64,000 bases of DNA from a virus (IMGVR_UViG_3300021387_001147:1-64000); one strand, 5' to 3'. Shown: positions 2,511 to 42,656, counted from the stretch's first letter. The notes: generated by a model not told the origin, from the sequence alone. Made by a program: numbers and translations.

Positions 2511-2842
2511 AGTTACAAATAATTATTAACGCTTTCTCCTTTCACAAACTAACTTAATGATTCCTCAACACCTGTTGAGTTTCATAATTTTTCTCCTTTA
2601 TTTAAGGCGGCATTAGGGTTTGGCTCATGCTATATGAGTCAGGCCCTTTTGTTCGCTACAAATGTGTATTTAACAGCGGCCTTGCTATTTGGTTATCCGC
2701 CTCCTTTCTTGATAGCTAAAATGGGTATTGGTTAATTGCTTTGCTGCTGCACGGGTTTCTTGTCAATTGTCATAGTCCAAGTAGCAAGGAAGCTGTTAAG
2801 TACACATTTATACAAACATCATATAGCAAAAGAGGTGATCTT

Positions 2843-3214: not shown

Positions 3215-3233
3215 TTAGTTGAGGTACTTCAAA

Positions 3234-16700: not shown

Positions 16701-19700
16701 TCGTTGGAGCTATTATGGCTGAAATAGTCATTGCTATGGCTGCACTTAATTTGCTCGGCGGTCATAAATCTACTGGCATGCAGAGAATTGGACAAGCTGC
16801 TCAAATTGTAGCTTTTGCAGCTGCCATAAAGTTGATAGCAAATGCCATAGCGCAGATTGCTGAATTAGATGCCAGCAAAGCAGAACAAGGCATAAAAGCT
16901 ATAAAAACTATATCGTTGTCTCTTAGTGCACTAATGATCTCGTCTAGGGTTTCGAAGTTGTCACTTAAGCCCATTATTGGACTTGGACTGTTATTCGCAG
17001 CAATTGCCTATGCTTTTGGTCAGATGGCTGGTATGGATCCTGATGAAATGAAAGCAACAGCAGGAGCTTTGACATCTATCATTGCCACGCTGTCACTTCT
17101 TGTATATTCTCTTGGCAAGATGTTCAAGAATAGTGGCACCGGCAATATTAAATCTACAGTTGTAAGCTTTATTGCTTTAGGTGCTTTGATAGGGGAAATG
17201 GCATTGATATTTTCTCTTATGCAAGATATGGATCCGCTTAAAATGGCATCACAAGCTGATGCTATGGCTAAAGTATTGAGATCATTAGCTTTTGTTATGT
17301 GGGCCACGTCTAAAATTGGTAGCACAGGATCTATTGGTGGCGATGTTAAAGGTGCTGTTGGCTCAGCACTTAGTGCTGACATTATACTTGCTAATGTAAC
17401 TGGCATTATGGCTATTGCAGGCTTGATTAATGAAAATGCTCCGTGGCTAAAAGATTTAATAGATAGTGGAATACCATTGCTTAATAAAGTGGCAGAAGGC
17501 ATTGGCGACTTTATTGGCACTCTTCTTAAGCATGCTATTATAAACCCTCTTGAAGATACAGTTGGCGATCTCGGCGATGGCCTTATGGGATTTATAGATG
17601 GAATAAAGCAGTTTATGGAAGGCACTAAAGATCTTGACGTTTCTGGTGTCTCTACTATATCTGATCTTTTAAGCGTGTTCTCATCTCTTGCCGGAGCGGG
17701 CATTCTTACTGCTATCACAGATTTCTTCATGGGCGAATCTTCTATGGAGAATTTCGGAACACAAATGGTAGCTTTTGGTAACGCACTCGTTGAATATTCT
17801 GGCATTGTTGCTGGAAATATTAGCGAAGAAGCAGTTGCATCAAGTGCAAGGGCAGCACAGATGCTTTCAGATTTTGCGAATACATTGCCAAATGAAGGCG
17901 GCTGGTTAGGAGCTATAGTAGGAGAAAATAATCTTTCTGATTTTGCTAATCAGTTAGTAGGATTTGGTACAGAACTCGTGAAGTACTCTGCCATTATTAC
18001 ATCTGGAAATGGCATCGACGAGGCAGCTGTTACGGCTAGCGCAAGAGCTGCAACAATGATTGCTGAATTTGCTAATAAAATTCCCAATCAAGGCGGTGCA
18101 TTAGGCGCTTTGGTAGGGGACAATACATTAGCTCAGTTTGCAGCTGGTCTCGAGCCGTTTGCTACCGCTATGGTAACATATTCTGATATTATTAAGAACG
18201 GAAATATTGATTCAGCTGCCGTAGAAAACAGTGCTAATGCCGCTACTATGATATCTAAATTTGCAAGCACTATACCCAATCAAGGCGGCAAGATAGCAAA
18301 ATGGGTTGGCGATAATACTCTTTCACAGTTTGCTGGTGAATTGGTGCCATTTGCTACTGAATTAGTTAAATACTCGGCTATCATTACATCTGGAAAAGGA
18401 ATAGACTCTGATGCAGTGGAAGCAAGCGCTGCCGCAGGATCTATTTTAGCGTCGTTTGCAGATGCGATTCCTAATAGCGGAGGATATTTAGCAGCATGGA
18501 TAGGTGACAATACTCTTTCACAGTTCGGCGCTACATTAGTACCATTCGCTGAAGATCTTAAATCATATTCAGAAGCGTGCGCCGGCTTGGACATGACAGA
18601 TGCTATTGCTGCTACTGGAGCTATTAGTGATCTTGTTGCACTATTTAACCAGATAAATGCTGAAGGCGGACTTCTTGGTGCTGAACAAACAGGTGCTAAA
18701 CTATCCGAAATAGAAGATATAGTGTCTTCGTTGTTCACTAATTTTGCTTGGGCACTTGAAGATGTTGACGATGTCACTTCTGTTTCTGATGCCATCAGTA
18801 ACCTTGGCAAGAAAATGGGTGAAACAATGTCCAAAGGCCTTGCTGAAGGAATCAAATCTACTGAAGGCGGAACTGACTTGCAGAATGCATTCAGTGAAAT
18901 GATTCAGAAGATGATTAACGGTGCTGATGGACAAGCAGGGGATTTATCAGGCCTTGCTGAATCTATTGTAGCATCTCTTGGAACTATTGGGGATGCTATC
19001 ACAACCAGCCTTGGTGCTGATAATCTGTCTGCCACTATTGTTCCTGAGCTTACAGCCGCTCTTACTGAAATGTTTGCTACTATTAATTCTAAGCAGCCTA
19101 TCTTCCGTACTGCTGGCAGCAATTTGGTTAATGCCCTTGCGGGAGGAGTAAGACAGGGACGTTCTTGGGTTACAGCAGCTCTTCAGGCAATAGGTATTGC
19201 TGGATTTAATGCTATTAACGCCTATCAGTCGAGATTCAGAACAGCCGGTAGAAATATGGGCGCTGGATTGGCTGGCGGTCTTAGACAGAGTAGATCGGAA
19301 GTCGTATCTGCGGCTAGATCTCTTGCCGATGCGGCAAATGCTGAACTTAAGCATAGAACTAAACAGAATTCACCGTCAAAACTTTGGGGCGAATTTGGTG
19401 ATAACATGGGTCAAGGCCTTGCCAATGGATTAATTGGTAGCGTTGGAGTTGTAAAGTCTGCTGTAGGAGTTATGGCCAAAGGTACGCATGACACTATGAC
19501 TGGCGAACTCAACTCAAGCGTAGAATCTGTAACAGATAATCTTTACAATCAGCTTGTCGCAGTATATCAGTATATCAATTCTGTCATTAATGAATCCACT
19601 AACATCAATCCAGTAATCACGCCAGTAGTAGATCTCTCACAAGTTCAAAATGGTATGTATTCTGCTGGTGCAATGCTCTCATCTGCAGGCAACGCATTCG

Positions 19701-19951
19701 GAGCAGGCGCTCTTTCTTATGCGAGATCTAATTTCCCAGGATCTTATAGTTATGGAGCGACGTCTCAGGCTATGAATCAGGGCAATAACTTAATGGCACT
19801 TAATGGCATTAGATCGGATATTAAAGAACTGTCCGAAACTATGTCGACAATGCAGATGGTTCTTGATTCTGGGGTTCTTGTCGGACAGCTTGGGTCAGGA
19901 ATGGACAGAAGACTTGGTACAATTCAGAAGCTTAAAGAGAGGGGAGCATAA
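13712..19951 (+). CDS. tape measure protein
   Basis: ~2,080 aa, Ala/Gly-rich helical; TMP domain with NETFEGSLANMK.ALSR; C-terminal NSPSK.W; TTG start after GGAGGTG. Confidence 0.95.
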   Translation: MSNVDERIVEMKFENHLFEKNVNTSIGTLEKLKNALKFNGVDKNLADLDKSVNSMDFSKLAAGVDALNKRFSTMGIVGMTVIQDLTRAAENMAHKMATGLFNQIKTGGWARATNIDQAKFQLEGLGVAWNDIVADIEYGVNDTAYGLDSAAKVASQLVASGITIGDNMQAALRGVSGVAAMTNSSYDEIGAIFTTVAGQGKLMTMQLRQLESRGLNVAANLGKASGKLAGKTESEIRDMVTKGQIDFQTFADAMNEVFGPQAKKANETFEGSLANMKSALSRIGAEFATPIRKNMIPIFNKLREIFNDIKKQKLGQVFKDFESFAFKMSKFAYGVLDTLHKNLGFVDTLAGGIHSIWIWFDELMQGVSPVWKFFTKAEEKAEVAASAISKVGLTLEVVEDLAQRVLAGEFGNEQARWDAIDELTGIENAGLAVQNRVNELLNCSKRYSEAAEIVEDSTTKEQEALEKAGKSIEDYAEAQNEIQDTAQGMIETLQKAFGEIDKAAVFEWAATVIGGFRAALTILGRTVMAVAAGALEPLIEIGKTIAGVFGKVTSTIAEWVMDFSKFMKESGGYAKIQTVTNKVFKAFSSILKGTVKVGSKVFDILGNAIGKVGSIIDQAKFRFQVFMELLKNTEGYKRLTEAFGNIGSKLIELKDNAFSKIQDALNRFMETDIELPKINLMDLANSVSDGIVWMLDKINELKTSILDFYNTNIVGEGGLMEKLQNFFSSENLQAGIQNFIELINEAREAIVKFFTGTSGAEGEAEETTSGLQKFLDDVNRIFEQIKQTVVDLVNNGIEDFNDFVNRIKESIPSLDEVVKKIMHIVGEITAINFIRAVNGIMTSISHISGILRNVKGAIGSFKWFFRSLSLAVSGLALLEIAGAIGILALSFKLLGSLSWDQFKVAAAAIIVITSALAVLFAVIGHFSSGKGGKIVETPLQSLTEMVKTLSSTISKAMKGLGRAATIAAFAYAVKTIYDIIMSVVDMPWYKVKTGLKLVGAIMAEIVIAMAALNLLGGHKSTGMQRIGQAAQIVAFAAAIKLIANAIAQIAELDASKAEQGIKAIKTISLSLSALMISSRVSKLSLKPIIGLGLLFAAIAYAFGQMAGMDPDEMKATAGALTSIIATLSLLVYSLGKMFKNSGTGNIKSTVVSFIALGALIGEMALIFSLMQDMDPLKMASQADAMAKVLRSLAFVMWATSKIGSTGSIGGDVKGAVGSALSADIILANVTGIMAIAGLINENAPWLKDLIDSGIPLLNKVAEGIGDFIGTLLKHAIINPLEDTVGDLGDGLMGFIDGIKQFMEGTKDLDVSGVSTISDLLSVFSSLAGAGILTAITDFFMGESSMENFGTQMVAFGNALVEYSGIVAGNISEEAVASSARAAQMLSDFANTLPNEGGWLGAIVGENNLSDFANQLVGFGTELVKYSAIITSGNGIDEAAVTASARAATMIAEFANKIPNQGGALGALVGDNTLAQFAAGLEPFATAMVTYSDIIKNGNIDSAAVENSANAATMISKFASTIPNQGGKIAKWVGDNTLSQFAGELVPFATELVKYSAIITSGKGIDSDAVEASAAAGSILASFADAIPNSGGYLAAWIGDNTLSQFGATLVPFAEDLKSYSEACAGLDMTDAIAATGAISDLVALFNQINAEGGLLGAEQTGAKLSEIEDIVSSLFTNFAWALEDVDDVTSVSDAISNLGKKMGETMSKGLAEGIKSTEGGTDLQNAFSEMIQKMINGADGQAGDLSGLAESIVASLGTIGDAITTSLGADNLSATIVPELTAALTEMFATINSKQPIFRTAGSNLVNALAGGVRQGRSWVTAALQAIGIAGFNAINAYQSRFRTAGRNMGAGLAGGLRQSRSEVVSAARSLADAANAELKHRTKQNSPSKLWGEFGDNMGQGLANGLIGSVGVVKSAVGVMAKGTHDTMTGELNSSVESVTDNLYNQLVAVYQYINSVINESTNINPVITPVVDLSQVQNGMYSAGAMLSSAGNAFGAGALSYARSNFPGSYSYGATSQAMNQGNNLMALNGIRSDIKELSETMSTMQMVLDSGVLVGQLGSGMDRRLGTIQKLKERGA

Positions 19952-30600: not shown

Positions 30601-32401
30601 TAAAGTTGCTAGTGCTATAGTCGAGGATTCTGGTGCGAATTCTATGAATGAGTATGCTATGCTCGCATATCAGGCAGCTGGAACTTCTGAACAGATTCTT
30701 AAGGTATGGACTAAAGATTCTAGTCTTGCTGATACTACAATTGATGGCGGATTCATTAAAACTCATACCATAGATTCTGAGCGGCTTAAAACTGATGCTA
30801 TAATGTCTGGGAACTATGATCCGTATAGTGGAGGAAAAGCAGCATACAATATTGCACTTTCTAACGATATGCATACCTTCACTACTGGTGGAAGCTCTAC
30901 TTTGATTAACGTTGTAGGCTACAAAGGAAGAACTAAAGTTGCCACTAGAGTAGCTTTAAAAAATGCTGCACCTTCTGGTATGACCTGTTCCATTTCTGAT
31001 AATAATACAGTAAATACTAAGTGCACTGTTACTACCTCTTCATCTTTTAATAGAAGTGGTTCGCTTACTTTTGTCGTTACAGTCGGAAGTGGGACAGAAG
31101 CTTATAGTGTAGAAAGAACTTTTACATATAATGTTTCGTCAGTTAATAGGCAGCTTAGCTTAATCTACATTGTTGACACTTCTAGCTATCCAGTATCAAT
31201 CATTGAGAAGAAAACTGATAATACATTTAACCCGGATAACATATCTGTACAAGCTACAGCTATACCTGGCGGTATATACAACGGACGCTTTCGTATAGAG
31301 ACAACTGCCAATATAGAAGACAATCCAGAAAATACTTATTGGGCGTCCCAATACGAATCGTCACAGGATGAGTTTATGTATAGGTATACTGCCATCCCTG
31401 ACAAAGTAAAAGCTATCAGATTTTCATTGTATGCATCTGGCGGGTTTACAACACTTCTTGATCAGCAGACTGTACTTGTAGCCACTGATTTTGCAGCGTT
31501 TTCAGCACAGGGTACATATCTTGACTTAGCTACAGGAAACTTTTATTCTCCGAATTTTGCAGTAATAAATACCGCTCCTTCTGATACCGGCTTTACTAAG
31601 GGCACTTATATGGGACCATGGAGAGTTACAGAAGACGCTATTTGGAAGATAAGCCAAAAGTTTAAGAATTCTCAAGCGAACTCTGCATATTTTGGAAATG
31701 AAGGCATTAGTATTACTGATAAGTTTAGCGTTGACAAGACTGGATATTTGGATACGAAAAAAGGCAAGATTGGCGATTGGTATATCGATGATGTTAATGG
31801 ATATTTAAGAAGCGCCGACAGTACTGTTATAATATCACCTAAAAGTACCAAAGATGGAGATAATTATATATACGCGAAATTCGGTGGAACATGGATAGAT
31901 AATCAAGGAAGCATGTATACAAGAGGCATAAATCTTGAGAAATGGATCAGTGCCTATAATATTCATGGGTTTGCCAGTGCACTTGTACCGCAGTGCGGAA
32001 AAGAGCTTGGCATTAACAACAGTACTGATTATAATTTTGTAAAGTTCGGAAGTTATGCTTCAGCATGGATAGCAGCTCACGAGTCAGACAGTTTATTATA
32101 TGCAAGAGCTGGTGGCGTAATATATGAACTTGGCAACTTCTTGTCCAATACAGTATGTCTTCGATATAAAAAATCGTCTATAAGAACTGACACTTTCACC
32201 GACGTTCAGCTTGGAAAAGTATATTTTGTTTCGATTTATCATACGCAATATGGTGACAGTATTGGTCTTTATATGGTTATTGGTGGTAAAGCAACGTACT
32301 GTACAATAATCGGCGGAGCTAATCTTAGATTAACAGTTACTGCCAATTCAATAGCATTCGAAGACACTAAGAATACTTCATCTTGGTACATTTACTATTA
32401 A
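27698..32401 (+). CDS. large tail fibre/central tail protein with Ig-like repeats
   Basis: 1567 aa; repeated SLY..GG.T.LLDQQTV modules, short collagen linkers, SQTADKISWLV coiled region. Confidence 0.7.
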   Translation: MSIAFGSITLSCVNDGEPGRNGVGISSTVVEYATGSSQTIPPEYTLVDENNTVLVDGDGAILTNGQWETEIPVVHDGMYLWSRTITTYDDGTFSISYSVSRDGIGILTEKRQYYLSDSPTTLSGGSWVYEQPYPIPAGKYMWGRLEFKMTDGTTTYSEAVYENTLSGIINKTDAIEGKITQKIWQTDIESAIDDFDTLEGNTTIRDRISEFSQDLDGIHTTIGDKTSSPSGILERLSRVSQTADKISWLVKSGDNISNMVLTDEMFNLITQKINISGKVTFSAFDSAAQQKFNDMETDLSNINIRDFKQEYGYSTSRTVQPVSWQTNVPEAAEGRYIWQKTTYTTKGSSQKIEEIVCLTGQKGDTGPAGSSVTAYTLEVSHAAVAKAVNGSYNPASITLNARSKVGSSPASDYSGRFVIETSTDGSTWRNPPDYTSSINEAIRSFTIPSGTVAIRCSLYAAGGTTTLLDQQTVPVVNDGANGGKGEDAYTIILTNEAHTFIGNSSTVIPTSVNCGVIAYKGATQIAAHIGEITGKPSGLSTSITNNDTTTARFTVSVTSSLASNNGTLTVPIVADGKQFTKYFSYSVSLKGATGAQGPAGKGITNTDIAYCVGESGTEAPGGYTIWADGDGAKLTDGDGAYLIDSTWSTTIPDVPDGSFLWVRKIETYSDGSSTTSYSVARSGVSGGDAYTVMLTNESHTFLGAEDHAIGGTVIFEVAAYKGAGRIEATIGNISSTSGGSSVSVTGMSVTVTENGTKNPKISVTVTDKMKDANGILYIPITVDGNTFTKEFTYSVAFKGKDGKDAKVRYLEVSNVAIVRDSSGTYTPNYIQVGAKERSGTSAMTGYSGRFKIETTENFTNWTARYTTPSDVSAYIYSNFPANIKAIRCSLYEAGGTTVLLDQQTVAIVENGSEGRGVASIEYYYCLSENKPVTNPIDDKVNWSTTPQKYDDVSKKYWTCTVTTYSDGSKVASAIVEDSGANSMNEYAMLAYQAAGTSEQILKVWTKDSSLADTTIDGGFIKTHTIDSERLKTDAIMSGNYDPYSGGKAAYNIALSNDMHTFTTGGSSTLINVVGYKGRTKVATRVALKNAAPSGMTCSISDNNTVNTKCTVTTSSSFNRSGSLTFVVTVGSGTEAYSVERTFTYNVSSVNRQLSLIYIVDTSSYPVSIIEKKTDNTFNPDNISVQATAIPGGIYNGRFRIETTANIEDNPENTYWASQYESSQDEFMYRYTAIPDKVKAIRFSLYASGGFTTLLDQQTVLVATDFAAFSAQGTYLDLATGNFYSPNFAVINTAPSDTGFTKGTYMGPWRVTEDAIWKISQKFKNSQANSAYFGNEGISITDKFSVDKTGYLDTKKGKIGDWYIDDVNGYLRSADSTVIISPKSTKDGDNYIYAKFGGTWIDNQGSMYTRGINLEKWISAYNIHGFASALVPQCGKELGINNSTDYNFVKFGSYASAWIAAHESDSLLYARAGGVIYELGNFLSNTVCLRYKKSSIRTDTFTDVQLGKVYFVSIYHTQYGDSIGLYMVIGGKATYCTIIGGANLRLTVTANSIAFEDTKNTSSWYIYY

Positions 32402-32424
32402 CTTTTTGAGAAAGGAGATAACAA

Positions 32425-33393
32425 ATGCCTGATCAAACACGAAATCTTAATAGTGTTACAGACTTTGCTGGAACACTAGATAGCAACGATCGAATCATCA
32501 TGACAGACAACAAGGCTTCACTTAAAGCTCTTACTACCGCTATTCTTGGTAAGGCGATAATTGAAGGGTATACTGGATCATCGTTAGCAGGAGCGAGTCA
32601 GTCTGTTAAGTCTGCTATTGATAGTTTAAATAGCAAACAAGCAGGAGCAAACGCAGGTGGTCACAACTCCGTTTTCCGTGGCAAGAACCTCGGAACATCT
32701 GTTACCGCTTCTCAGTGGTCGGCAATCAGCGGTGGGACGTTCGATGATTTGTATATTGGCGACTATTGGGTAATTAACTCAGTAACGTGGCGTATTGCAG
32801 CTTTCGACTATTGGCTGAATTGCGGTGACACAGCATGCACGACTCACCATGCTGTCATCGTTCCTGACAGCAATTTGCTGAACGCAGACGGAAGCACAAC
32901 GCATTATATGAATACTTCAAATACTACTGAAGGCGGCTACATTGGGAGCGGATTTTTCTCCGGTACGAATGCCGACAGTTCATCGAATACGGCGAAAGCG
33001 CAGTGCGTCACAAAGGCACAGAATGCTTTCGGGTCTTCACATATTCTGACTCACAGAGAATATTTCTCTAATGCAGTAACGAACGGATATGTATCTGGAG
33101 GAACGTGGACAGACAGCACTGTAGATTTGATGAACGAGTCGATGGTATATGGCAACAAGTTCTTCGAGAACATCATTAACGGAACAAATGTTCCTGCCGC
33201 ATATACTATTGATAAAGTACAGCTCCCCCTGTTTGCTTTTACACCGCAGTATATTTGTAATCGTGCGGACTGGTGGCTTCGTTCTGTTGTTTCTTCTTCG
33301 CATTTCGCTCGTGTCGGCGCCAGCGGGCTTTGCTACTACTTCGACGCTTCGAGCCCAGGGCTTGGGCTTCGCCCGGCTTTCGGAATCAAATAA
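32425..33393 (+). CDS. DGR-type target protein (C-type lectin-like C-terminus), putative receptor binding
   Basis: KNLGTSVT..GTFDDLYIGDYW N-domain; C-terminal WWLRS..F..V..G..AS..G.RPAF typical of DGR variable domains. Confidence 0.75.
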   Translation: MPDQTRNLNSVTDFAGTLDSNDRIIMTDNKASLKALTTAILGKAIIEGYTGSSLAGASQSVKSAIDSLNSKQAGANAGGHNSVFRGKNLGTSVTASQWSAISGGTFDDLYIGDYWVINSVTWRIAAFDYWLNCGDTACTTHHAVIVPDSNLLNADGSTTHYMNTSNTTEGGYIGSGFFSGTNADSSSNTAKAQCVTKAQNAFGSSHILTHREYFSNAVTNGYVSGGTWTDSTVDLMNESMVYGNKFFENIINGTNVPAAYTIDKVQLPLFAFTPQYICNRADWWLRSVVSSSHFARVGASGLCYYFDASSPGLGLRPAFGIK

Positions 33394-33423
33394 TCTTTAA
33401 TCTCCGCCCCTCGTGGGCGGAGA
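33271..33423 (+). other. DGR variable repeat, IMH and cruciform hairpin
   Basis: 7 A in 111 nt (33271-33381); NNY codons at the variable positions; tctccgccc-ctcgt-gggcggaga hairpin at 33401-33423. Confidence 0.7.
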
Positions 33424-33449
33424 GGTAATTCTGAAAGGAGGAGTTGACT

Positions 33450-33497
33450 ATGTCAGTTCCTAAGTACCAATTTAACTCATTACTTTTCACAAGTTAA
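33450..33497 (+). pseudogene. possible stump of DGR avd gene (MSVPKYQFNSLLFTS*)
   Basis: Strong GAAAGGAGG RBS before a 15-codon ORF at the position avd normally occupies. Confidence 0.4.
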
Positions 33498-33523
33498 CAC
33501 ACTACTAAGAGAAAGGAGACTCA

Positions 33524-33973
33524 ATGAAAAAGAATCTGACTACAGCCCAAGTTTTATATTTGCTTGACTTCTATGGCGGGATGAATGAAGAAAAGCTTAA
33601 CGAACTTGGGATTAAAGTCAGGTGGGCACTAAAGAGAGCTGTGAGTTCTGTGTATCCTATAGCTAAGCAGTTCGAGGATTTCAGAAAAGAAGAAATTGAA
33701 AAGATCCGAGCCAATTATGCCACACCTGAAAAATCTGTAATTGAGCAAGACGGAGAAGAAACTAAAAGATCTATAAAAGATGAATTCAAAGAAGCTTATC
33801 AGAAAGATCTTGATAGTCTTAATAAAGCCTTACGAGAGCTTTTGGATGAGCAGCACGAATTTGAGTATGGCGGAGTTGATATGGATACGGTTGTTGAATC
33901 GTTACCAGACAACTCCGTTTTTACGTTTAAAGATCTTGAAATATTAAGTGATTTCATAGGAGAAGACCGATGA
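33524..33973 (+). CDS. hypothetical protein (possibly fibre assembly)
   Basis: 149 aa, GAAAGGAG RBS. Confidence 0.7.
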   Translation: MKKNLTTAQVLYLLDFYGGMNEEKLNELGIKVRWALKRAVSSVYPIAKQFEDFRKEEIEKIRANYATPEKSVIEQDGEETKRSIKDEFKEAYQKDLDSLNKALRELLDEQHEFEYGGVDMDTVVESLPDNSVFTFKDLEILSDFIGEDR

Positions 33974-34065
33974 AAGAAAAAACGGATATTAAAGATTTGA
34001 TTCCTGAAGCTACTGACGAAACAAAAGAAGAGCTTTCAGACAATAAAGGAGACGATGAAGAATGA
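33970..34065 (+). CDS. 31-aa acidic peptide
   Basis: MKEKTDIKDLIPEATDETKEELSDNKGDDEE; ATGA overlaps at both ends. Confidence 0.55.
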   Translation: MKEKTDIKDLIPEATDETKEELSDNKGDDEE

Positions 34066-35030
34066 GTTATTCGAATAGTTCCCTTGCTACATATACAAAG
34101 CTAAGTCCAAATAATTCAGGTCTTAGAGCTCACACTATTGACCGGATCAGTCCTCATTGCGTGGTTGGTCAATGCTCGATTCAGAGTCTTGGATCATGGT
34201 TTGCACTTAGTTCAACCAGAGCTTCTTCTAACTATGGCATTGATAAGGATGGCAAGATTGGTCTTTTCGTTGAGGAGAAAAATAGATCCTGGTGTACATC
34301 GAGTTCAGCTAACGATAATAGAGCTATTACTATTGAGTGCGCTTCCGACTCTACCGATCCTTATACAATGCATAACTGTGTTTACACTTCTCTTATTAAG
34401 CTTTGCGCCGATATTTGTAAGAGAAATGGCAAGACGAAGCTTCTTTGGATTCCTGATAAGAATAAAGCACTCAATTATTCACCGAAATCTGATGAAATGC
34501 TGATTACAGTGCACCGGTGGTTTGCAAATAAGTCTTGCCCAGGAGACTGGTTATATTCTAGACTTGGAAGTCTTGCAGATCAGGTCAATAAATTACTTGG
34601 CGCTAAAACTGAAACCGCTAAGCCTTCTATCTCTACAGCAACTACTCCTGGAACAACTAAATCTCATTCGACTCTTAGACTTAATTCTCCTGAGTATGAA
34701 GAGGTCAAGACATTGCAGACTTACCTCAACAAGTTTGGAGCGAATCTTGTAGTGGATGGACTCTTTGGAATTAAGACTTATCTAGCCGTTCGCGAATTTC
34801 AGAAGAATTACGATCTGTTTGTTGATGGCATTGTAGGACCTAATACTTGGGGTAAACTTGATAGCCTTGTTAAGAATGCATCTAGCAAGAAGACAGTATC
34901 CGAACTTGCTAAAGAAGTTATCTCCGGTAAATGGGGCAATTGGCCAGATCGTGAGAAGAGATTGACTTCAGCTGGATACAGCTATAAAGAAGTTCAGGAC
35001 GAAGTTGACAAACTCATGGGCAAGAAATAA
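34062..35030 (+). CDS. endolysin: amidase_2 + PG-binding + CW_7
   Basis: ISPHCVVG..ASSNYGI..ITIECAS..VHRWFANKSCPG; LVVDGLFG..VDGIVGPNTW; ELAKEVISGKWGN..VQDEV. Confidence 0.9.
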   Translation: MSYSNSSLATYTKLSPNNSGLRAHTIDRISPHCVVGQCSIQSLGSWFALSSTRASSNYGIDKDGKIGLFVEEKNRSWCTSSSANDNRAITIECASDSTDPYTMHNCVYTSLIKLCADICKRNGKTKLLWIPDKNKALNYSPKSDEMLITVHRWFANKSCPGDWLYSRLGSLADQVNKLLGAKTETAKPSISTATTPGTTKSHSTLRLNSPEYEEVKTLQTYLNKFGANLVVDGLFGIKTYLAVREFQKNYDLFVDGIVGPNTWGKLDSLVKNASSKKTVSELAKEVISGKWGNWPDREKRLTSAGYSYKEVQDEVDKLMGKK

Positions 35031-35428
35031 TGTTCATATACCTTAACATGAATCCAGAAGCAAAAGAGACATTTGACTGTGTAATTAGAGCTGTTTCTTT
35101 TGTTCTTGGACTTGATTGGGATACTACTTTTCTCTACATAGCTATCGAGTGTCTAATTCATCATGATATGCCAGAGCAGAATTATATTTGGGCAGGGCTA
35201 CTTCGGAAAATGGGATTTACACGTCACATTATACCGGACACCTGCCCTGTTTGTTATACAGTAAAAGATTTCTGCCATGATCATCCTTATGGCACTTATC
35301 TTCTTGTAATTATAAGCCACGGTGAAGGTGGCGGACATGTCGTAGCAGTAGAGGATGGGAATTACTATGATATTTGGGACTCAGGCGATGAAGTTCCAAC
35401 GTACTACTGGACTAGAGAAAGGGGATAA
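35030..35428 (+). CDS. conserved phage protein, possible Cys-His peptidase fold
   Basis: NP..DCVIRA..HVVAVEDG.YYD.WDS. Confidence 0.5.
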   Translation: MFIYLNMNPEAKETFDCVIRAVSFVLGLDWDTTFLYIAIECLIHHDMPEQNYIWAGLLRKMGFTRHIIPDTCPVCYTVKDFCHDHPYGTYLLVIISHGEGGGHVVAVEDGNYYDIWDSGDEVPTYYWTRERG

Positions 35429-35433
35429 GACAA

Positions 35434-35919
35434 ATGGCATATAACTATTCACAATATCAGCCTGGGTACTATCAGGGCAATGGAAATGGGTATCCTCAGC
35501 AGAATCCTTATTATCAAACTGCTGTAAATACTCAGCAATATTCCGGCGGTGGGATGCAAACAGCTGTCCCAATGGCTCAAATGCAGCAGCCTATGAGTCA
35601 GCAGAGTGCTTCATCTGGAATTAACTGGGTTCAGGGTAGAGCAGGTGCAAATTCGTTTTATGTGGCTCCTGGACAGTCAGCTCTTTTGATGGACAGTGAA
35701 GATTCTGTCCTCTATGTGAAGTCCGTTGATATGACTGGAAGACCGATGCCTCTTGAAATTTATGATCTGGTTAAGAGAGATAGTGTCGTCGATGTTCCTC
35801 AGATTTCTCAGAGACAAGCTCCAGCATCTCAGCCTGCACCGGACATGAGTCAGTATGTAAAGGCTTCCGATCTTGAATCTATGGTCGAGAAGTATGTGAA
35901 TAAAGTCTTAGAGAAATGA
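35434..35919 (+). CDS. Gln/Tyr-rich protein (module gene 1)
   Basis: Low-complexity N-terminus; INWVQG..GA..VAPG..LLMDSE core. Confidence 0.75.
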   Translation: MAYNYSQYQPGYYQGNGNGYPQQNPYYQTAVNTQQYSGGGMQTAVPMAQMQQPMSQQSASSGINWVQGRAGANSFYVAPGQSALLMDSEDSVLYVKSVDMTGRPMPLEIYDLVKRDSVVDVPQISQRQAPASQPAPDMSQYVKASDLESMVEKYVNKVLEK

Positions 35920-35972
35920 AAATAGTAATCATTCTTCTTATAGTTCTTTATATCATTGCCACAATGTAAGAG

Positions 35973-36209
35973 GTGAATAATATGCCAAATCCCTTATTCA
36001 GTAGATTTGGAGGAGGATCAGGTCCAAAGATGCCTGGTCCTTTTTCTAACTTTATGAACATGATGAGCCAGTTCAGACAGTTCAGAAGTCAGTTTCAGGG
36101 AGATCCTAGGCAGCAAGTTCAGGAGCTTTTGAATTCCGGACAGATGACTCAGGAGCAATTCAATCAGTTAAGTAGCATGGCTAACCAATTTAAAGATATG
36201 TTCAAGTAA
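35973..36209 (+). CDS. Met/Gln-rich small protein (module gene 2)
   Basis: F.GDPRQQVQELLNSGQMTQEQFNQL. Confidence 0.75.
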   Translation: MNNMPNPLFSRFGGGSGPKMPGPFSNFMNMMSQFRQFRSQFQGDPRQQVQELLNSGQMTQEQFNQLSSMANQFKDMFK

Positions 36210-36464
36210 TGTTGTAGGTGGCTTGACGTCTTTACTGCATAAGTATGCGAACAAAAGGCCATGCTTAATAGTTTCTTTACAACAGAATATGGAACTCGTA
36301 GGGCTTAAGTTGGCTTGCTTCTTGAATTGCATCTTTTAACCACAACATAAAGTGTTTGCAAGTCCGTTTAGCTTTTGATTTATCTAAATTAATTCAAAAT
36401 GCAAGCCAATTTAAGAGTTTCTAAGTAACTTGTTAAGCGTTTTCTAAAAGGAGGAATATTTAAT

Positions 36465-37298
36465 ATGTCCTTGGTAAACGATGGAGCTGGTAATATGGTC
36501 ATGCCTGTAGGTCCTATGGGTGGATATGGAAATGGTAGTCTTGGATGGGGAGGAGATGGATCTTTCTGGATCATTATTCTTTTCCTGTTCGCTATGATGA
36601 ATGGCAATTGGGGAGGATGGGGCAATAATGCAGGCGCTGCTATGCCCTATATCATGAACAACACAACGAATAATGACATGCAGCGTGGATTTGATCAGCA
36701 GGCTATTATGGGCGGTATTAACGGTATCAACACAGCTCTTGCTAATGCCGAAGTGTCCAGATGTAACGCTCAGGCCAACATTCTTCAGACATTAAATCAG
36801 AACCAGTCGGCTGCAAATCAGGCTATGAATAGTCTCGCTATGAGTCTGCAGAACTGTTGCTGTGAGAATAGAGCAGGTCTTGCTGATCTTAAGTATACTG
36901 TTGCTACAGAGGCTTGTGCTGATCGTCAGGCTGTTACGAATGCTCTCTTCGATGTGACTACTGCTAATAACAATAATACGCAGCAGCTCGCAAATGCGAT
37001 CAACAACGGCATTCAGTCTATTCAGGATAAGCTTTGCAGTCTTGAGCTTGAAGGCGTTAAGAATCAGCTTGCTCAGGCGAATAGAGAGAATGCAGCTCTT
37101 CAGTCTCAGCTTGCTGTATCTAATCAGAATGCTATTATTCAGCAGGGATTCGCAAATGAGGTGGACAATCTCTACAATCGTCTGAATAATTGCCCAGTTC
37201 CTACCACTCCTGTTTATGGTCGTACTCCGATCTTTACCTGCAATAATGGCATGAGCGGATGCGGATGTGGCTGCAGCGGTAACGGCTTCGTAGCATAA
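36465..37298 (+). CDS. Gly-rich/TM + coiled-coil + CCC protein (module gene 3)
   Basis: GGDGSFWIIILFLFAMM; MQRGFDQQA; LQNCCCENR; Cys-rich C-terminus GCGCGC. Confidence 0.8.
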   Translation: MSLVNDGAGNMVMPVGPMGGYGNGSLGWGGDGSFWIIILFLFAMMNGNWGGWGNNAGAAMPYIMNNTTNNDMQRGFDQQAIMGGINGINTALANAEVSRCNAQANILQTLNQNQSAANQAMNSLAMSLQNCCCENRAGLADLKYTVATEACADRQAVTNALFDVTTANNNNTQQLANAINNGIQSIQDKLCSLELEGVKNQLAQANRENAALQSQLAVSNQNAIIQQGFANEVDNLYNRLNNCPVPTTPVYGRTPIFTCNNGMSGCGCGCSGNGFVA

Positions 37299-37313
37299 GG
37301 CTGGAGGTGCAAT

Positions 37314-37778
37314 ATGTCAGAATATTTAACCAGAGATGCAGTTGAAAGTGTAGCTCTTAATACTGCAATCCCATTCGTGGATTCTATTCCTTGTACTCGT
37401 GGCTATGTATGGCATCAGAGTGGTACAGGAATTTTTGTTCTGCGTGGCATCGTGAATAATCCTTGTGCTTCGTTCGCTCGCTATGAAGTAGAGTTTACAG
37501 GTAATATTGCTATTCCGACAGGCGGAGCAGTAACTCCGATTGCAACAGCTATTATTGTGTCAGGTGAGAGTCGTACTGGCAGTAGAAGTATATTTACTCC
37601 AGCTGCTGTAGATACATACGGCAATGTTACAAGCCGTGCTACGATCGATGTTCCTAAAGGATGCTGCTTCACCGTATCTGTTGAGTATGTGAATGGAGCC
37701 GTTGACAATCCTACTGCTACTCCGACTCCACTCATTAATGTGGTTGATGGCAGCTTGTCTATTAGAAGGTCAGCTTAA
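37314..37778 (+). CDS. beta-sandwich protein, BclA-CTD/C1q-like (module gene 4)
   Basis: GIFVLRG..ARYEVEF.GNIA..AI..GE..all-beta pattern; CC motif. Confidence 0.5.
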   Translation: MSEYLTRDAVESVALNTAIPFVDSIPCTRGYVWHQSGTGIFVLRGIVNNPCASFARYEVEFTGNIAIPTGGAVTPIATAIIVSGESRTGSRSIFTPAAVDTYGNVTSRATIDVPKGCCFTVSVEYVNGAVDNPTATPTPLINVVDGSLSIRRSA

Positions 37779-37795
37779 GAAAGGAGGGAGATCCC

Positions 37796-38191
37796 ATGAA
37801 AGAACTTGAGAATCTGAAAGAATTATATTTGGATGAAATTAAGGCTATCAACAAGAAGGGGGAGCTCACTCCTACTGATGCTGAAGCTGCAAAGAAAGCA
37901 CTCGAAGCTATCGAAAAGATCAATAAACTTTGCTATGACGAAGAGTACGAGGATGAAGGATATTCCGAAAGGATGTATCCTCGCTATTCTATGAATCGTT
38001 CCTACAGAAGCATGATGCCTGAGATGAGACCGTATGAGTATGACGATCATATGAGCCACACGGGTTATAGTGAAAGAAGAGGCAGAAGTGCTACCACAGG
38101 ACGTTATATTTCAAGACACGCTGGAAGTGATAACGATAACATGGTTATTGATGACATTATCGCGAAGCTTGAGAACATGAAGAACTATTAA
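37796..38191 (+). CDS. helical + Arg/Tyr/Met-rich protein (module gene 5)
   Basis: GYSERRGRSATTGRYISR. Confidence 0.7.
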   Translation: MKELENLKELYLDEIKAINKKGELTPTDAEAAKKALEAIEKINKLCYDEEYEDEGYSERMYPRYSMNRSYRSMMPEMRPYEYDDHMSHTGYSERRGRSATTGRYISRHAGSDNDNMVIDDIIAKLENMKNY

Positions 38192-38233
38192 CTTTTAAAC
38201 AGTATGCAATGATTTAACCTGGAGGCATATCGA

Positions 38234-38794
38234 ATGTCCATAGATGAAATCTTTTCCAAAATGTCTGAGCATATGGTAAAGGGAATGATGGTTCATGAGC
38301 AGCTTATGAATTCCTATTTATATTTGGGATTAAAAGGCTATGCTGCTTGTCACGAGTATCATTATCTTGAAGAGACGAAAGGACACATTAGGCTTAACAC
38401 ATACAAGATTGAACACTATGATTCACTTGTAGTAGGAACGTTTGATAGATCTGATGTTCCTGAAATTGTCCCAGAGTCATGGTTTAACTTCAAACGGAAT
38501 ACAGTTGATGCTAATACTCGAAATCAAGCAATAGCAGCTGCTTACGATGAATGGATTAATTGGGAATCTGAAACGAAAGTTTTATACGAAGAGATCTATT
38601 CAGACCTAATTAATCAGGGAGAAATTCCTTTCGCTGAATTCGTTAAGGAATACATCTTAGACGTTGAAGAAGAATTAGTTTATGCTAAATCTGAGAGACT
38701 CGCTAAATCGTCTATGGACTTCGACATAGTCTCCATTTTAGAAGAGCAGGAGCAGTATGAACGTTCTTTTAAAAAGAAAATCCGTAAAGGGTAA
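38234..38794 (+). CDS. ferritin-like four-helix protein (module gene 6)
   Basis: HEQ..GLKGY..HEYHYLEE..WE.E..LYE..EEEL pattern. Confidence 0.55.
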   Translation: MSIDEIFSKMSEHMVKGMMVHEQLMNSYLYLGLKGYAACHEYHYLEETKGHIRLNTYKIEHYDSLVVGTFDRSDVPEIVPESWFNFKRNTVDANTRNQAIAAAYDEWINWESETKVLYEEIYSDLINQGEIPFAEFVKEYILDVEEELVYAKSERLAKSSMDFDIVSILEEQEQYERSFKKKIRKG

Positions 38795-38824
38795 ATCATT
38801 TCATACTTCTCATGTGGAGGACGT

Positions 38825-39169
38825 ATGGGAATCATTGGATATATCTCTGCGCACTGGATCGAGTGGCTCTTCATGATCGTTACTGCTATCATAGGATTCG
38901 GTTATAGAACTGTTCTTAAGAGATTGCAAGAAGAAAAGCAGCGAAATGAAGCCATTGCTGAAGGTGTGCAGAGCCTTTTAAGAGAAAGCATTGTAAACAG
39001 TTACAACAAGTATCAGGATAAGGGCTTTTGTCCCATTTATGCGAAAGAGAGCATTCGTAAAGTTTATTTGGCTTATCATAATCTTGGCGGAAATGATGTA
39101 GCCACAAACCTTTACAATAATGTCTTAGCCATGAGGGAAGAGCCTGAAGGTAAAGAGAAGAATGAGTAA
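38825..39169 (+). CDS. N-terminal TM protein (lysis-associated)
   Basis: Single TM followed by IAEGVQSLLR..YHNLGGN. Confidence 0.6.
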   Translation: MGIIGYISAHWIEWLFMIVTAIIGFGYRTVLKRLQEEKQRNEAIAEGVQSLLRESIVNSYNKYQDKGFCPIYAKESIRKVYLAYHNLGGNDVATNLYNNVLAMREEPEGKEKNE

Positions 39170-39386
39170 TAAAGTGTATGATATTTTAAAATTCATTGCT
39201 CAGATCGTATTGCCTGCCATTGCGACTTTCTATGTAACGATTGCGGGCATTTGGAATTTGCCACTTGGAGATGAGATTAGCCGTACTGTTATGGCAATTG
39301 ATACTCTTCTTGGTGCAATCCTTATGATCTCTACTGCTTCGTATAAGAAAGGCCTTTTGGAAGAAAAGCCTGAAGCAGAGGAATGA
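39162..39386 (+). CDS. holin (Dp-1 type)
   Basis: MSNKVYDILKFIAQIVLPAIATFY..IWNLP..IDTLLGAIL.IST. Confidence 0.85.
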   Translation: MSNKVYDILKFIAQIVLPAIATFYVTIAGIWNLPLGDEISRTVMAIDTLLGAILMISTASYKKGLLEEKPEAEE

Positions 39387-39477
39387 ACTATGGCTGATGA
39401 TAGGTGATAGTTGCTTATCATCAGCCTTTTGATTTCGAAAACAATATTATATTTATATAGATGAGAAAGGAGTACAT

Positions 39478-40638
39478 ATGGCTAATATAGCTACTTACTT
39501 AGCAAAAATTAAATCCGCAGTTTACGGAGAAGAGGTACGTGGAGCGATCCATGATTCTATTAATACTATAAACAACGATGTGGAAAATGCAATCAGAAGA
39601 AATGCCAATGCACTTCCTTTCTGTGGTGATTTAGCTTCAATCAATCTCGATTACGTTACGGGATCAAACGATAGCTACAGAGGAATTTATAGGCTTCTTC
39701 CTAGAAATACGTATACTAATTTGCCGTCCGACTTTAATGCAAATAAAACAGGCTGTCTTATTGTTTACACAAATGGATCATATTGTATTCAAGAGCTGCA
39801 TTACTATGAATCTTTTGTCGGTAATCCCAACATGGGTTTTAAATTTTGGAAAAGAAATGACTATATAGGCGGGCTTAGTGATGGGTCATTTTCAGATTGG
39901 GTAAGCATAAATTCCTATGTCGAATCTATTATTAGCAACAATTCTATCATCACAGGTTTACGGACTGACCTTAATAATCAGAAAACAAAATTCCAGGGCG
40001 ATGTTGATTACGCTAACGATATGGCAAGAAATGCTATGAATAAGGCGTTAGAACTTGAACGTCGTATGGATGGCGGTGAAGGCGGAGGAGGCGGTGGCTC
40101 TGTTGTTATCTCTACAGACGCTACATTAACTCAATCTGGTGTTCCTGCTGATGCAAAAGCTGCTGGGGATAAAATTACTGGAATAAGAACAGACGTCGAT
40201 ACTGCTAATGATTATGCGAGGAATGCTATAAATACTGCTAACAGCGTATCCGGAAGATTAGATAGTGCACTTGATAGCATTAATAGTGAATTTAGCGGTG
40301 TTAACGACAGTATTAGCGACATTAATGACATCTTAAATAGTGCAATTTTTAGAGCTAGAACCATTACAAATGGAGACATTAATTTAGTGTACAATCCAGG
40401 CATTTATGGAGTACTATCTCCAAGTGCAGAAGCAACACAGAACTGGCCTTATCCTGACGAATATGGGACTCTTGCTGTGTTTAGAGGAGCATCAGATTCA
40501 TTAACGCCAGTTGTTTATTGTTTAGTGCAGGTAGCTTTTTGTTCTCACGGGGCAGCGTTTAGAATGCTTATTCCGCCTTTAATGGATCCTGAAGATCCTG
40601 TATATACAGACTGGATGACATTATATTCTGGAGAGTAA
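39478..40638 (+). CDS. fibre-like protein with two knob domains
   Basis: KIKSAVYGEEVRGAIHD N-terminus; D.TLTQSG.PADAKA motif; two GIY..LIVY/LAVF knobs. Confidence 0.6.
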   Translation: MANIATYLAKIKSAVYGEEVRGAIHDSINTINNDVENAIRRNANALPFCGDLASINLDYVTGSNDSYRGIYRLLPRNTYTNLPSDFNANKTGCLIVYTNGSYCIQELHYYESFVGNPNMGFKFWKRNDYIGGLSDGSFSDWVSINSYVESIISNNSIITGLRTDLNNQKTKFQGDVDYANDMARNAMNKALELERRMDGGEGGGGGGSVVISTDATLTQSGVPADAKAAGDKITGIRTDVDTANDYARNAINTANSVSGRLDSALDSINSEFSGVNDSISDINDILNSAIFRARTITNGDINLVYNPGIYGVLSPSAEATQNWPYPDEYGTLAVFRGASDSLTPVVYCLVQVAFCSHGAAFRMLIPPLMDPEDPVYTDWMTLYSGE

Positions 40639-40650
40639 TAAAAAGCATTT

Positions 40651-40834
40651 AAAAGCAACTGATTAGTACCCTACTTATACCACAAATGTTATTTTGTAGC
40701 GTAAATAGGTATACTAATCTTTTCTTTCCCTAAATATGAAGACCCCTCCCCGTAGGATCATGTGAGAAAACAAGCCTATTGGGAGGGGTATTTCGTTGTC
40801 CTAAAATGACATAAAAAGCACTTCATTAGTACCC
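40651..40834. mobile_element. candidate attP
   Basis: Direct repeats aaaagca(n4)attagtaccc at 40651-40671 and 40814-40834 in the intergenic region 3' of int. Confidence 0.45.
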
Positions 40835-40860
40835 CACTGGTACCACCTAGGCATATCGCC

Positions 40861-42069
40861 TTATTTTATCTTGGAAAGTTCTTTATGAAGCCAAATGATA
40901 TTTCTGGCGGTGTATACGCGTTCAGTAATGTCCATAATTCTGTGACCAACAATTAACTTGATAGCGTACTCATCTACTCCGGCTTCCTTAGCCATGGTGA
41001 TGAAATGCTTTCTCCCATCGTGAGGCCTATGATCCGGATTGAGTTTAAGCTCACTTGCCAGCTCCTTATATTTTACTTTCAAGATTTCATACGATATAGG
41101 GTACTTCGGTTTAAAGAACAGCTTACTCATTCCGGATTTAATAGCCTCAGTATACCATCTTTGAAGAATAGGTCTAATCTTTTCGTGAATCGGTACTTCT
41201 CTATTCTTTCCTGCCTCAGTCTTGGATCCGCAGATAATTGACCAGTCTTTCATATTTACTTTCGATACATCAATATTACAAAGCTCATTAGGACGAAGAC
41301 CTGAATAGCACTGAAAAACGATCATGTCAGATACCCATGATTCACCTACCTTACTCCAGAGCTTCTTCATCTCTTCATCTGTATATTTGATATGAGGCTT
41401 AACGGCATCATCATTACCGAACCCAGTCCTGATATCACGAGCGTAATTCCGATCTACGTATCCATACTCAACGGCGTAGTCCATCATCATTGAGATCGTA
41501 TACTTTATATTTTTCTTTGTGTTATCTGAAGGGTATAGTGTCTTGTCATTCACAGTCTTATGAGCATCGTCAAGAAGTCTTCTAAGATCTGGTGTCTTAA
41601 TTGACTGCACTAGTCTAAACCCAATAACCTCTTCACAGTACTTCCAGGCAGCTTTAATGGCATCATACCTCGAATTGCTAACCTCCTGCCTATGAATCTC
41701 TACCCATCTCTCATACAGCTCGTTCATAGTCATGTCGTTATCGAAGTCATATGGATTTGCATGATATTCTACGAGTGCTTTATAGGCTTCATTATAGGTC
41801 TTAAAGTATGCTTCAGGCTTAAGTAGTTTCCCTATCGGATGCCCAAACTCATCCTTTCCAACAGATACCATGACTCTGAAAGGTTTACGGCGCTTCTTAT
41901 CTGTGAGTTCAGTAATCCTGCCGAAACCATTAGGAAGTCTCATATGAGTAGTACGCTTCTTTTTAGGCGAGTCTTTAGGCTTGGTGAGCGATAGTGGCAT
42001 ACCGCAGTTAGGACAAGAGATAGCTTTATCTGATACGTCATGGCCACACTCTGGGCATTTAATTAGCAT
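40861..42069 (-). CDS. int: tyrosine integrase with N-terminal zinc ribbon
   Basis: CPECG..CPNCG; YSGLRPNE, KTEAG, HRPHDGRK, VGH..ITERVY catalytic set. Confidence 0.95.
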   Translation of the reverse strand: MLIKCPECGHDVSDKAISCPNCGMPLSLTKPKDSPKKKRTTHMRLPNGFGRITELTDKKRRKPFRVMVSVGKDEFGHPIGKLLKPEAYFKTYNEAYKALVEYHANPYDFDNDMTMNELYERWVEIHRQEVSNSRYDAIKAAWKYCEEVIGFRLVQSIKTPDLRRLLDDAHKTVNDKTLYPSDNTKKNIKYTISMMMDYAVEYGYVDRNYARDIRTGFGNDDAVKPHIKYTDEEMKKLWSKVGESWVSDMIVFQCYSGLRPNELCNIDVSKVNMKDWSIICGSKTEAGKNREVPIHEKIRPILQRWYTEAIKSGMSKLFFKPKYPISYEILKVKYKELASELKLNPDHRPHDGRKHFITMAKEAGVDEYAIKLIVGHRIMDITERVYTARNIIWLHKELSKIK

Positions 42070-42167
42070 TATTTACATCTCCTTATATTTTTTTCTTGGA
42101 CTTGAGTGAATTCGCAAGATTTACACATCCTATTATAGGAACCTATATATTTAAGGAGGAAATTACT

Positions 42168-42389
42168 ATGAAGGATGAAGAAGTATTGAAAATATTTAAT
42201 TGCGGAGCAAAAACATTTGCGAACATACTAATAGTCTCTTTGTATAATAGCGATCCTAAGGCTGCAGAAGCATTACTTGATTCTGTAAGATCGATGGACA
42301 CTATTGAAGCAAGAGTCGATGGAAGGGAGTTACATGTCAATTTATACCAAGCATTAAATAAACAATTAGAAGAGTATTTACATAGATGA
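42168..42389 (+). CDS. hypothetical cassette protein
   Basis: Promoter motif + AAGGAGG + hairpin. Confidence 0.7.
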   Translation: MKDEEVLKIFNCGAKTFANILIVSLYNSDPKAAEALLDSVRSMDTIEARVDGRELHVNLYQALNKQLEEYLHR

Positions 42390-42462
42390 TTAGGTTCCTA
42401 TACGGGATTGTATAATAAACTACAGTCCCTTATTTTTTCGCAACTTTTACATGTTCTATAAT

Positions 42463-42656
42463 AGAAAGGATCAATGGGTATTAAAGTACCTATGGCGGAA
42501 CATATACGCAAATGGATCGCCTGTTTGGCAAGCAGGAATATGCGTTATTGCTAGAAGGTGTATCGCAACCAACGTGAAGCCTTATCCCATTTCGAGTTGG
42601 GAATCGGGGAAATAGGCATTCTTATGGATCCATAAGAATTACATCTTCTTATTTTT
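42463..42656 (+). ncRNA. candidate structured RNA (contains 26-aa uORF 42474-42554)
   Basis: Promoter motif upstream; several stems; 22-nt perfect palindrome 42618-42639; T-run end. Confidence 0.45.

Follow-up and report, generated by a model that had tools for sequence, protein, structure and literature searches.

The region described here lies in a 64,000-nucleotide stretch of viral DNA (IMGVR_UViG_3300021387_001147:1-64000, hereafter the window), taken from the start of a virus record 87,960 bp in length. An earlier reading made from the bare sequence (the sequence-only reading) had picked out six genes between an endolysin and a holin, here named P1 to P6, as a coat- or exosporium-like module. 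All six open reading frames (ORFs) are present on the + strand at those positions; the gene list was incomplete, however, as two further genes, C132 and H114, lie in the same interval (Table 1). Comparison of related loci showed that the true conserved unit is C132-P1-P2-P3-P4-P5 (the cassette), which begins one gene 5' of the block first noted.

On the + strand the order is endolysin, C132, P1 to P6, H114, Dp-1 holin, a hairpin and a 386-amino-acid (aa) ORF, followed by an integrase on the - strand. The first hairpin of terminator type occurs only 3' of the holin, leaving lysin, cassette and holin as one apparent transcription unit, the transcript of which this hairpin would terminate. The holin scored 80.2 bits against a Phage_holin_Dp1 cut-off of 25. 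P1 to P4 match PHROGs without assigned function (E 1.7e-16 to 1.7e-33) and, in keeping with the sequence-only reading, no cassette gene could be assigned to any named family of virion, replication or lysis genes in Pfam, PHROG or NCBIfam. The compositions given for the proteins were likewise confirmed: P1 is rich in Gln and Tyr, P2 in Met and Gln, P3 carries CCC and GCGCGC clusters, and P4 is all-beta with the pair C117-C118. Translation of P2 more likely starts at the ATG at 35982, which is preceded by GAGG. The gap between P2 and P3 (36210-36464) is unusually long (255 nt) and contains a predicted long-range stem, but its folding was no better than that of shuffles (z -0.43), it had no Rfam match, and no sign of an RNA leader was seen in it. 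An Rfam search of the interval 32000-42500 returned nothing at E <= 1.

Table 1 Genes and features of the region, numbered from the first nucleotide of the window
Feature	Coordinates	Strand	Description	Matches and alignments
Endolysin	34062..35030	+	Context, outside the cassette; Amidase_2 + PG_binding_1 + CW_7	Pfam E 4.8e-14 to 6e-17; PHROG endolysin families E 3.9e-80
C132	35030..35428	+	132 aa; first gene of the conserved cassette; predicted minimal papain-fold cysteine peptidase with extra conserved CPxC	
P1	35434..35919	+	161 aa	phrog_21718 E 1.7e-16; alignment A4
P2	35973..36209	+	78 aa	phrog_22984 E 2.9e-17; alignment A5
P3	36465..37298	+	277 aa; putative 'stalk'	phrog_16490 E 1.7e-33; alignment A3
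P4	37314..37778	+	154 aa; putative 'knob'; predicted stand-alone C1q/TNF jelly roll (BclA-CTD / ExsF-like)	
P5	37796..38191	+	131 aa; final gene of the conserved core	alignment A7
P6	38234..38794	+	186 aa; lineage-specific add-on; possible remote ferritin-like helical protein	
H114	38825..39169	+	N-terminal transmembrane segment + helical domain	phrog_4105 E 1.6e-20
Dp-1-type holin	39162..39386	+	Context	PF16938 E 1.4e-22
Terminator-like hairpin	39392..39426	+	16 pairs + T run	Pattern match only

Conservation and distribution of the cassette

A tblastn search with P3 as query led to Butyrivibrio virus Ceridwen and Dulem virus 33, both of which encode C132-P1-P2-P3-P4, with P5 additionally present in Dulem virus 33. 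P3 relatives were encoded on 246 of 258 candidate IMG/VR stretches (80 of the 246 were retained for analysis) and on 20 of 54 in GTDB genomes, while a second query returned at least 598 stretches. Profile hidden Markov models built from our own alignments were run over 182 related loci and detected P3 in 182, P4 in 176, P5 in 173, P1 and P2 in 170 each, C132 in 164, and P6 and H114 in 8 each; the figure for P3 holds by construction, every locus having been picked for its P3 relative, and the counts are not independent, as 80 loci (L105-L184) came from one search and most loci from one data set. Divergent forms of P1, P2 and P5 (clusters 2, 8, 12 and 0) were undetected by BLAST alone.

The six genes C132 to P5 occur in this order and without interruption at 149 of the 182 loci, and several of the incomplete rows resemble loci truncated at contig ends. 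Carrier contigs range from ~32 to 96 kb, and the genome of the window itself holds a single copy. The claim of a six-gene unit is thereby upheld as regards co-conservation, although its boundaries have to be moved, with C132 belonging to the unit and P6 falling outside it. Their presence at so few loci marks P6 and H114 as lineage-specific add-ons, H114 always being found within the cassette or at its end. Similar clusters in other gut and rumen phages had been mentioned in the sequence-only reading, and this survey of synteny bears that out. Literature searches yielded no paper on the cassette; in the part of the Ceridwen publication available to us (PMC7372960), its genes are listed as hypothetical and virion proteomics is not reported.

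Genomic neighbourhood and mobility

Neighbouring genes were surveyed in a census of 643 flanking genes from 102 loci, falling into 253 clusters. The most frequent neighbour was a Phage_connect_2 connector (24 loci, immediately upstream of the cassette in 17), followed by HNH endonucleases (19 loci), endolysins (16), TerL (13), a small sigma70-r4-like regulator of the helix-turn-helix (HTH) type (13) and a GerE-like HTH regulator (10); integrases, a helicase and tail-collar fibres were also seen. The cassette moves between phage backbones and between genome positions.

The description of the module as splitting the lysis cassette did not survive this comparison, being specific to the present lineage: most copies are not beside lysis genes. 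At L185 and L186, a run from C132 to P6-H114 is followed after ~1.4 kb by adjacent holin (HOL) and lysin (LYS) genes downstream of the cassette, and at L008 and L009 a rearranged cassette encloses the holin. The arrangement at L185 and L186 shows that H114 travels with the P6-bearing cassette and that the separation of lysin from holin in the window is a local rearrangement, a conclusion to which the variable neighbours also lead.

Insertions recur at the P2-P3 junction, which is occupied by an endonuclease gene in Dulem virus 33 and by ORFs of 468 aa (L004), 517 aa (L081) and 1027 aa (L013) elsewhere. At L109 (3645-4171), representing a lineage very abundant in the gut (~80 near-identical loci), a 101-aa transmembrane (TM) protein and a 68-aa sigma70-r4-like HTH protein are encoded between C132 and P1; judging from these genes, cassettes of this type may bring their own regulator. 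Comparison of H114 with the TM protein inside the L109-type cassette revealed no similarity (E 0.70).

The window carries a complete siphovirus-type late module 5' of the region, comprising connector (phrog_4247), TerL, portal, head protease and major tail protein, then a tape measure of 2086 aa, Dit and a series of tail and fibre proteins reaching to a fibre of 1567 aa. Within the interval 2741-4676, the connector-like gene (2741-3211) is followed by a 486-aa ORF without PHROG match and then by TerL. Because the cassette lies directly downstream of the same connector family at 17 other loci, this site is a cargo hotspot that is otherwise occupied in this phage. The N-terminal region of the tape measure (13691-19951) also matches endolysin PHROG phrog_971 (E 1.6e-31). 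The 386-aa ORF 3' of the holin (39478-40638) contains a Gly run and has weak matches to NPV_P10 and Baculo_PEP_C (E 0.007 and 0.03, respectively); its relatives in related loci measure ~730-840 aa, and the 837-aa relative at L004 (9864-12374) carries CBM_5_12 and a metallophosphoesterase domain.

Predicted fold of P4 and layout of P3

The predicted model of P4 (predicted local distance difference test, pLDDT, 91.1) places all 154 aa in a ten-strand jelly roll of the C1q/TNF fold. Its VIA matches were the F-BclA C-terminal domain (CTD; 16.5, root-mean-square deviation 1.9 over 125), BclA CTD (15.4), EDA (14.8) and ExsFA (13.7), compared with 9-12.6 for phage receptor-binding heads, and Foldseek gave E 6.6e-7. 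As modelled, P4 is a BclA/ExsF-like C1q/TNF jelly roll, in line with the BclA-type beta domain that the sequence-only reading had invoked. Matches in BFVD were stand-alone 130-145-aa proteins on contigs labelled Siphoviridae, Podoviridae and Myoviridae. Residues C27 and G116-C117-C118 are invariant. P4 could be placed in no curated family, Pfam and NCBIfam giving no match at E <= 0.1 or 1, and a 47-sequence profile had no sequence match in PDB at E <= 10. No run of Gly-X-Y triplets was read in P3 or P4, and a collagen-like stalk joined to a head in one polypeptide was not found.

The N-terminus of P3 is rich in Gly and Trp and includes a short hydrophobic core; an amphipathic region of 182 residues without proline follows, and then a Pro-rich tail. 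P3 contains 11 Cys residues, including CCC at 131-133 and GCGCGC at 265-270; the amphipathic region holds the near-invariant motif LQNCCCENRAGxADLKYTVATExCADR, and the C-terminal end reads GCGCG. Two types of tail occur in the family, NCPVPTTPVYGRTPIFTC and NPAPIPAYxVQNPNCC. The earlier description of P3 as a TM segment plus coiled coil was not confirmed. The hydrophobic core spans 9-14 residues, with a best 19-residue Kyte-Doolittle mean of 1.54 (family median 1.48), and the 30 residues upstream of it are mostly without K or R, so that by these sequence measures it is a borderline candidate for a TM segment. Amphipathic periodicity near 3.65 was detected over the proline-free stretch (matched by 15 of 1000 shuffles), but no heptad signal. 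Profile searches of Pfam, NCBIfam and PDB gave no significant match to P3, and its sequence does not place it among Cys-rich scaffolds of the CotY / ExsY type. A double-glycine leader in P3 was considered and rejected, the GG not being conserved.

C132, a putative papain-fold enzyme

The predicted model of C132 (pLDDT 91.9) has a papain-like alpha+beta fold. Its best 50 VIA matches were all papain-fold proteins, among them YopQ (7.3), Josephin-2 (7.2), PCAT1 (7.1) and ComA (7.0); Foldseek support was weak (E 0.016). Across 42 C132 sequences D16, C17, R20, H103, D114 and W116 are invariant, and a CPxC motif at 72-75 is conserved at >=90%. In the model C17 begins helix 17-26 and H103 begins strand 103-108, so that the conserved set C17, H103 and D114, with the presumed catalytic Cys at a helix N-terminus, corresponds to the Cys/His/Asp set of clan CA. 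Sequence conservation and predicted model together show C132 to have a papain fold with an invariant Cys-His-Asp set. The label of peptidase is taken from the modelled fold, with which an isopeptidase or a transglutaminase would be equally compatible.

No Pfam match was obtained for C132, and a PDB profile search gave nothing significant; the CPxC region had a weak glutaredoxin-like local match (E 0.59). C132 does not qualify as a Peptidase_C39 member, having no Pfam match, no transporter among its neighbours and no GG at a fixed position in P3. Longer forms of C132 are tandem copies or fusions with unassigned C-terminal domains and were not informative. In Bacillus phage Izhevsk (L104, 4971-5366), a C132 relative adjoins a Ser/Thr kinase gene, and the third gene downstream of the relative is Ocr-like; another relative, that of Geobacillus phage GBK2 (L103, 4983-5372), lies upstream of RecE/RecT.

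Low-complexity proteins and P6

P1 (Q 13%, Y 9%) combines a Q/Y/P-rich low-complexity N-terminus with a small conserved core (WVQGEAGAKAYPVAP...K...G) and a C-terminal helix. It gave no lead in PDB, Pfam or Atlas, and residues 55-161 retrieved unnamed viral clusters only in the latter. P2 is dominated by Q (15%), F (13%) and M (12%) and carries the conserved motif GDPxQxVQQLLNSGQMTQxQFNQ. P5 consists of two helices flanking a Y/S/R/D-rich low-complexity middle with RRGR..TGRY.SR; it matched no family in Pfam, PHROG or NCBIfam, and a PDB profile search gave nothing significant. Among the 102 loci L001-L102, its divergent form (cluster 0) is represented by 41 members at 41 loci, and 37 of these members follow P4 directly. 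In a set of 72 loci, sequence identities of these low-complexity proteins were correlated even where the genes are not adjacent (P1-P5 rho 0.52, P1-P2 0.55, P2-P5 0.50), with rho only 0.15 between P1 and its neighbour C132. This could reflect co-evolution, or two deep clades of fast-evolving genes.

P6 belongs to a family of 805 clusters at 50% identity. A profile of 76 sequences leaned towards ferritin, as had been proposed for this protein: 27 of the 37 PDB matches listed were ferritins (best 3kx9, E 6.8e-4, and 1s3q, E 1.2e-3), and the nearest named clusters in Atlas were Ferritin (0.88). Other findings were less favourable. An 8-sequence profile found no ferritin in PDB, the Pfam Ferritin family matched only 4 of 76 family members and below its cut-off (best E 0.0029), and the di-iron ligand set E / ExxH / E / ExxH is not kept, the ExxH His residues not being conserved; the conserved residues are H21, E47, E111 and E147. 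On sequence grounds P6 is a marginal candidate for a remote ferritin relative.

Discussion

The explanation that we tentatively favour, giving it somewhat less than an even chance, is that the six genes form an autonomous late cassette, mobile among tailed phages of gut and rumen, which would build a peptidase-associated stalk-and-knob assembly and of which the region holds a copy extended in this lineage by P6 and H114. P3 may form a Cys-stapled helical stalk, the Pro-rich, Cys-ended tail of which would dock on a P4 trimer; an analogous contact is described for ExsF, whose trimer holds a Pro-rich leader peptide in its inter-subunit cleft (PMC12357932). The layout would correspond to a BclA-like stalk-and-knob architecture divided over two genes, with C132 processing or cross-linking a cassette component and the low-complexity P1, P2 and P5 co-assembling with stalk and knob. 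Reading of the sequences, without a predictor, showed no signal peptide in any cassette component. Since lysin, cassette and holin here also share one apparent transcription unit, late cytoplasmic production would be expected, with lysis setting the assembly free or displaying it on membrane debris. BclA-type tip fibrils cluster spores, and by analogy the likeliest role would be adhesion or aggregation. The cassette would then be neither a spore-coat system nor a lysis component.

Several observations weigh against this explanation. P3 lacks a 3.5-residue heptad signal. The P3 of the window is a mosaic, its middle being 79-81% identical to those of L081, L008 and L007 while its tail type and P4 match a different group, and at 44 loci P4 identity had appeared specifically coupled to that of the P3 tail (rho 0.55 versus 0.25). 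This specific coupling was dropped when the signal did not hold in 72 loci: over 2556 pairs, the correlation of P4 identity with the P3 tail (rho 0.51) was little above that with the P3 middle (0.42) and equal to that with the neighbouring P5 (0.51), so that plain linkage through adjacency explains the mosaic. A Rosetta-stone fusion of P3 and P4 (P0001) was also rejected, as it occurs on a single contig, the 99%-identical relatives of which have two genes. Finally, Bacillus Tsamsa-like phages and Geobacillus phage GBK2 have C132 relatives without the cassette, and the C132 enzyme family also exists independently of the cassette.

Location in late regions, and a tail-fibre-like ORF either between P2 and P3 (the 1027-aa ORF at L013) or upstream of the cassette (L072, with a Collar domain), would suit a virion appendage, in which P3 and P4 would make up a side fibre, a whisker or an additional receptor-binding fibre on the particle and C132, P1, P2 and P5 would serve as assembly or maturation factors. 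We consider this unlikely, though worth keeping in view, since the cassette moves among unrelated backbones and positions, P4 look-alikes sit on contigs labelled with all three tailed-phage families, a spread that a virion-specific adaptor would not easily tolerate, no part has a virion-attachment domain recognisable in Pfam or PHROG, and some copies carry a small HTH regulator of their own. Distinctly unlikely is the coat- or exosporium-like shell of the sequence-only reading, which would remodel the host spore surface or encase virions for protection. Exosporium proteins (F-BclA, BclA, ExsFA/BxpB) are indeed the best fold matches of P4, the partner proteins are Cys-rich and of low complexity, and P6 leans towards ferritin. 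Against this, 174 of 182 cassettes are without P6, an anaerobic habitat disfavours disulfide cross-linking, and no cassette protein matches any coat or exosporium family in Pfam. The cassette is present in Ceridwen, for which only the lytic cycle was observed, on B. fibrisolvens DSM 3071 (PMC7372960). SpoIVA was detected in 1 of 5 cassette-carrying bacterial genomes and in the B. subtilis control, these genomes being metagenome-assembled, so that absence is weak evidence, and action in endospore formers during sporulation, as is the case for BclA and ExsF, was not found. B. fibrisolvens is not known to sporulate. With a lytic Butyrivibrio phage carrying the cassette and no SpoIVA detected in four of five carriers, a spore-surface role is unsupported.

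Here lysin and holin flank the cassette within a single apparent transcription unit, which raises the question of a lysis accessory or membrane-active device, in which the hydrophobic Gly/Trp-rich tip of P3 would attack or reorganise a membrane at lysis, acting like a spanin, a disruptin or a holin regulator. LYS-type genes are near the cassette in 16 of 182 loci and HOL-type genes in 15 of 182, the holin is inside it at L008 and L009, H114 is a membrane protein, and the P3 profile has weak, non-significant matches to haemagglutinin HA2 (E 0.41-0.96). We nevertheless rate this as very improbable, given that most copies are not adjacent to lysis genes, that HOL and LYS stay together downstream of the cassette at L185 and L186, and that the hydrophobic core of P3 does not reach the length of a classical TM segment and has no positive charges beside it. 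Haemagglutinin, with its protease-primed head and fusion rod, also offers a parallel for a portable two-part spike apart from the virion, in which a receptor-binding P4 head would sit on a Cys-joined helical P3 rod, with a hydrophobic Gly/Trp-rich tip exposed or matured by C132, and be released at lysis; the chances of this are slim. If true, the spike with its sticky low-complexity partners would become embedded in the membranes of debris, vesicles or neighbouring cells, or link such membranes, so that progeny phage would be glued to the next host, or that host conditioned. Least credible, and to our minds barely so, is a bacteriocin-like or defence / counter-defence cargo, in which a C39-like peptidase matures a Gly-rich hydrophobic peptide or clips a host conjugate. 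It draws on the C39 peptidases (PCAT1, ComA, LahT-like 6mpz) and Josephin-type clippases among the fold neighbours of C132, on P3 N-termini such as ...AADVAAVTGG, and on the kinase and Ocr-like genes near the Izhevsk relative. The GG has no fixed place in P3, however, the cassette is without a transporter, and C132 identity tracks the P3 N-terminus least of all parts (rho 0.15-0.24). A PADLOC search gave no family beyond a coiled-coil-type ZorA match (E 6e-4), which falls on the helical region and was set aside as compositional, not as a defence family.

Hundreds of gut and rumen phage contigs, across small and large genomes, carry the six-gene block. It joins a predicted exosporium-type head fold, a putative minimal papain-fold enzyme and prion-like low-complexity proteins in a non-spore phage setting, and finding its job could reveal a new phage interaction with cells or surfaces in anaerobic gut ecosystems. 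The cassette is experimentally accessible in the cultured pair of Ceridwen and B. fibrisolvens DSM 3071.

Among known systems, the marginal match of the P6 profile to ferritins (PF00210; 3kx9, 1s3q, 5ls9) is collinear over helices A-B and C-D, in two stretches with E 6.8e-4 to 2.4e-3. The putative enzyme C132 differs from C39 double-glycine peptidases (ComA, PCAT1, LahT) and Josephin-type enzymes in being without an ABC-transporter fusion and without a conserved GG site in the neighbouring protein, and in having the additional conserved CPxC motif. P4 resembles the CTDs of BclA and F-BclA and the ExsF proteins (BxpB, ExsFA) of the Bacillus cereus-group exosporium and F-type endospore appendages (PDB 1wck, 9h38, 7r1m, 9h3d) in predicted fold, at an identity of only 11-18%. 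Unlike that system, the cassette is phage-borne, its putative stalk and knob are on separate genes, it includes a predicted papain-fold peptidase and three low-complexity proteins which the exosporium system does not have, and it occurs in a lytic Butyrivibrio phage as well as in hosts in which SpoIVA was not detected. In TNF-headed phage receptor-binding proteins (cyanophage A-1(L) short fibre, PRD1 P5, TM4 gp23 and the receptor-binding protein of lactococcal phage 1358), the head makes up the C-terminal domain of a long protein anchored in the virion. P4, in contrast, is a protein of its own (154 aa), and the movement of the cassette is independent of tail modules.

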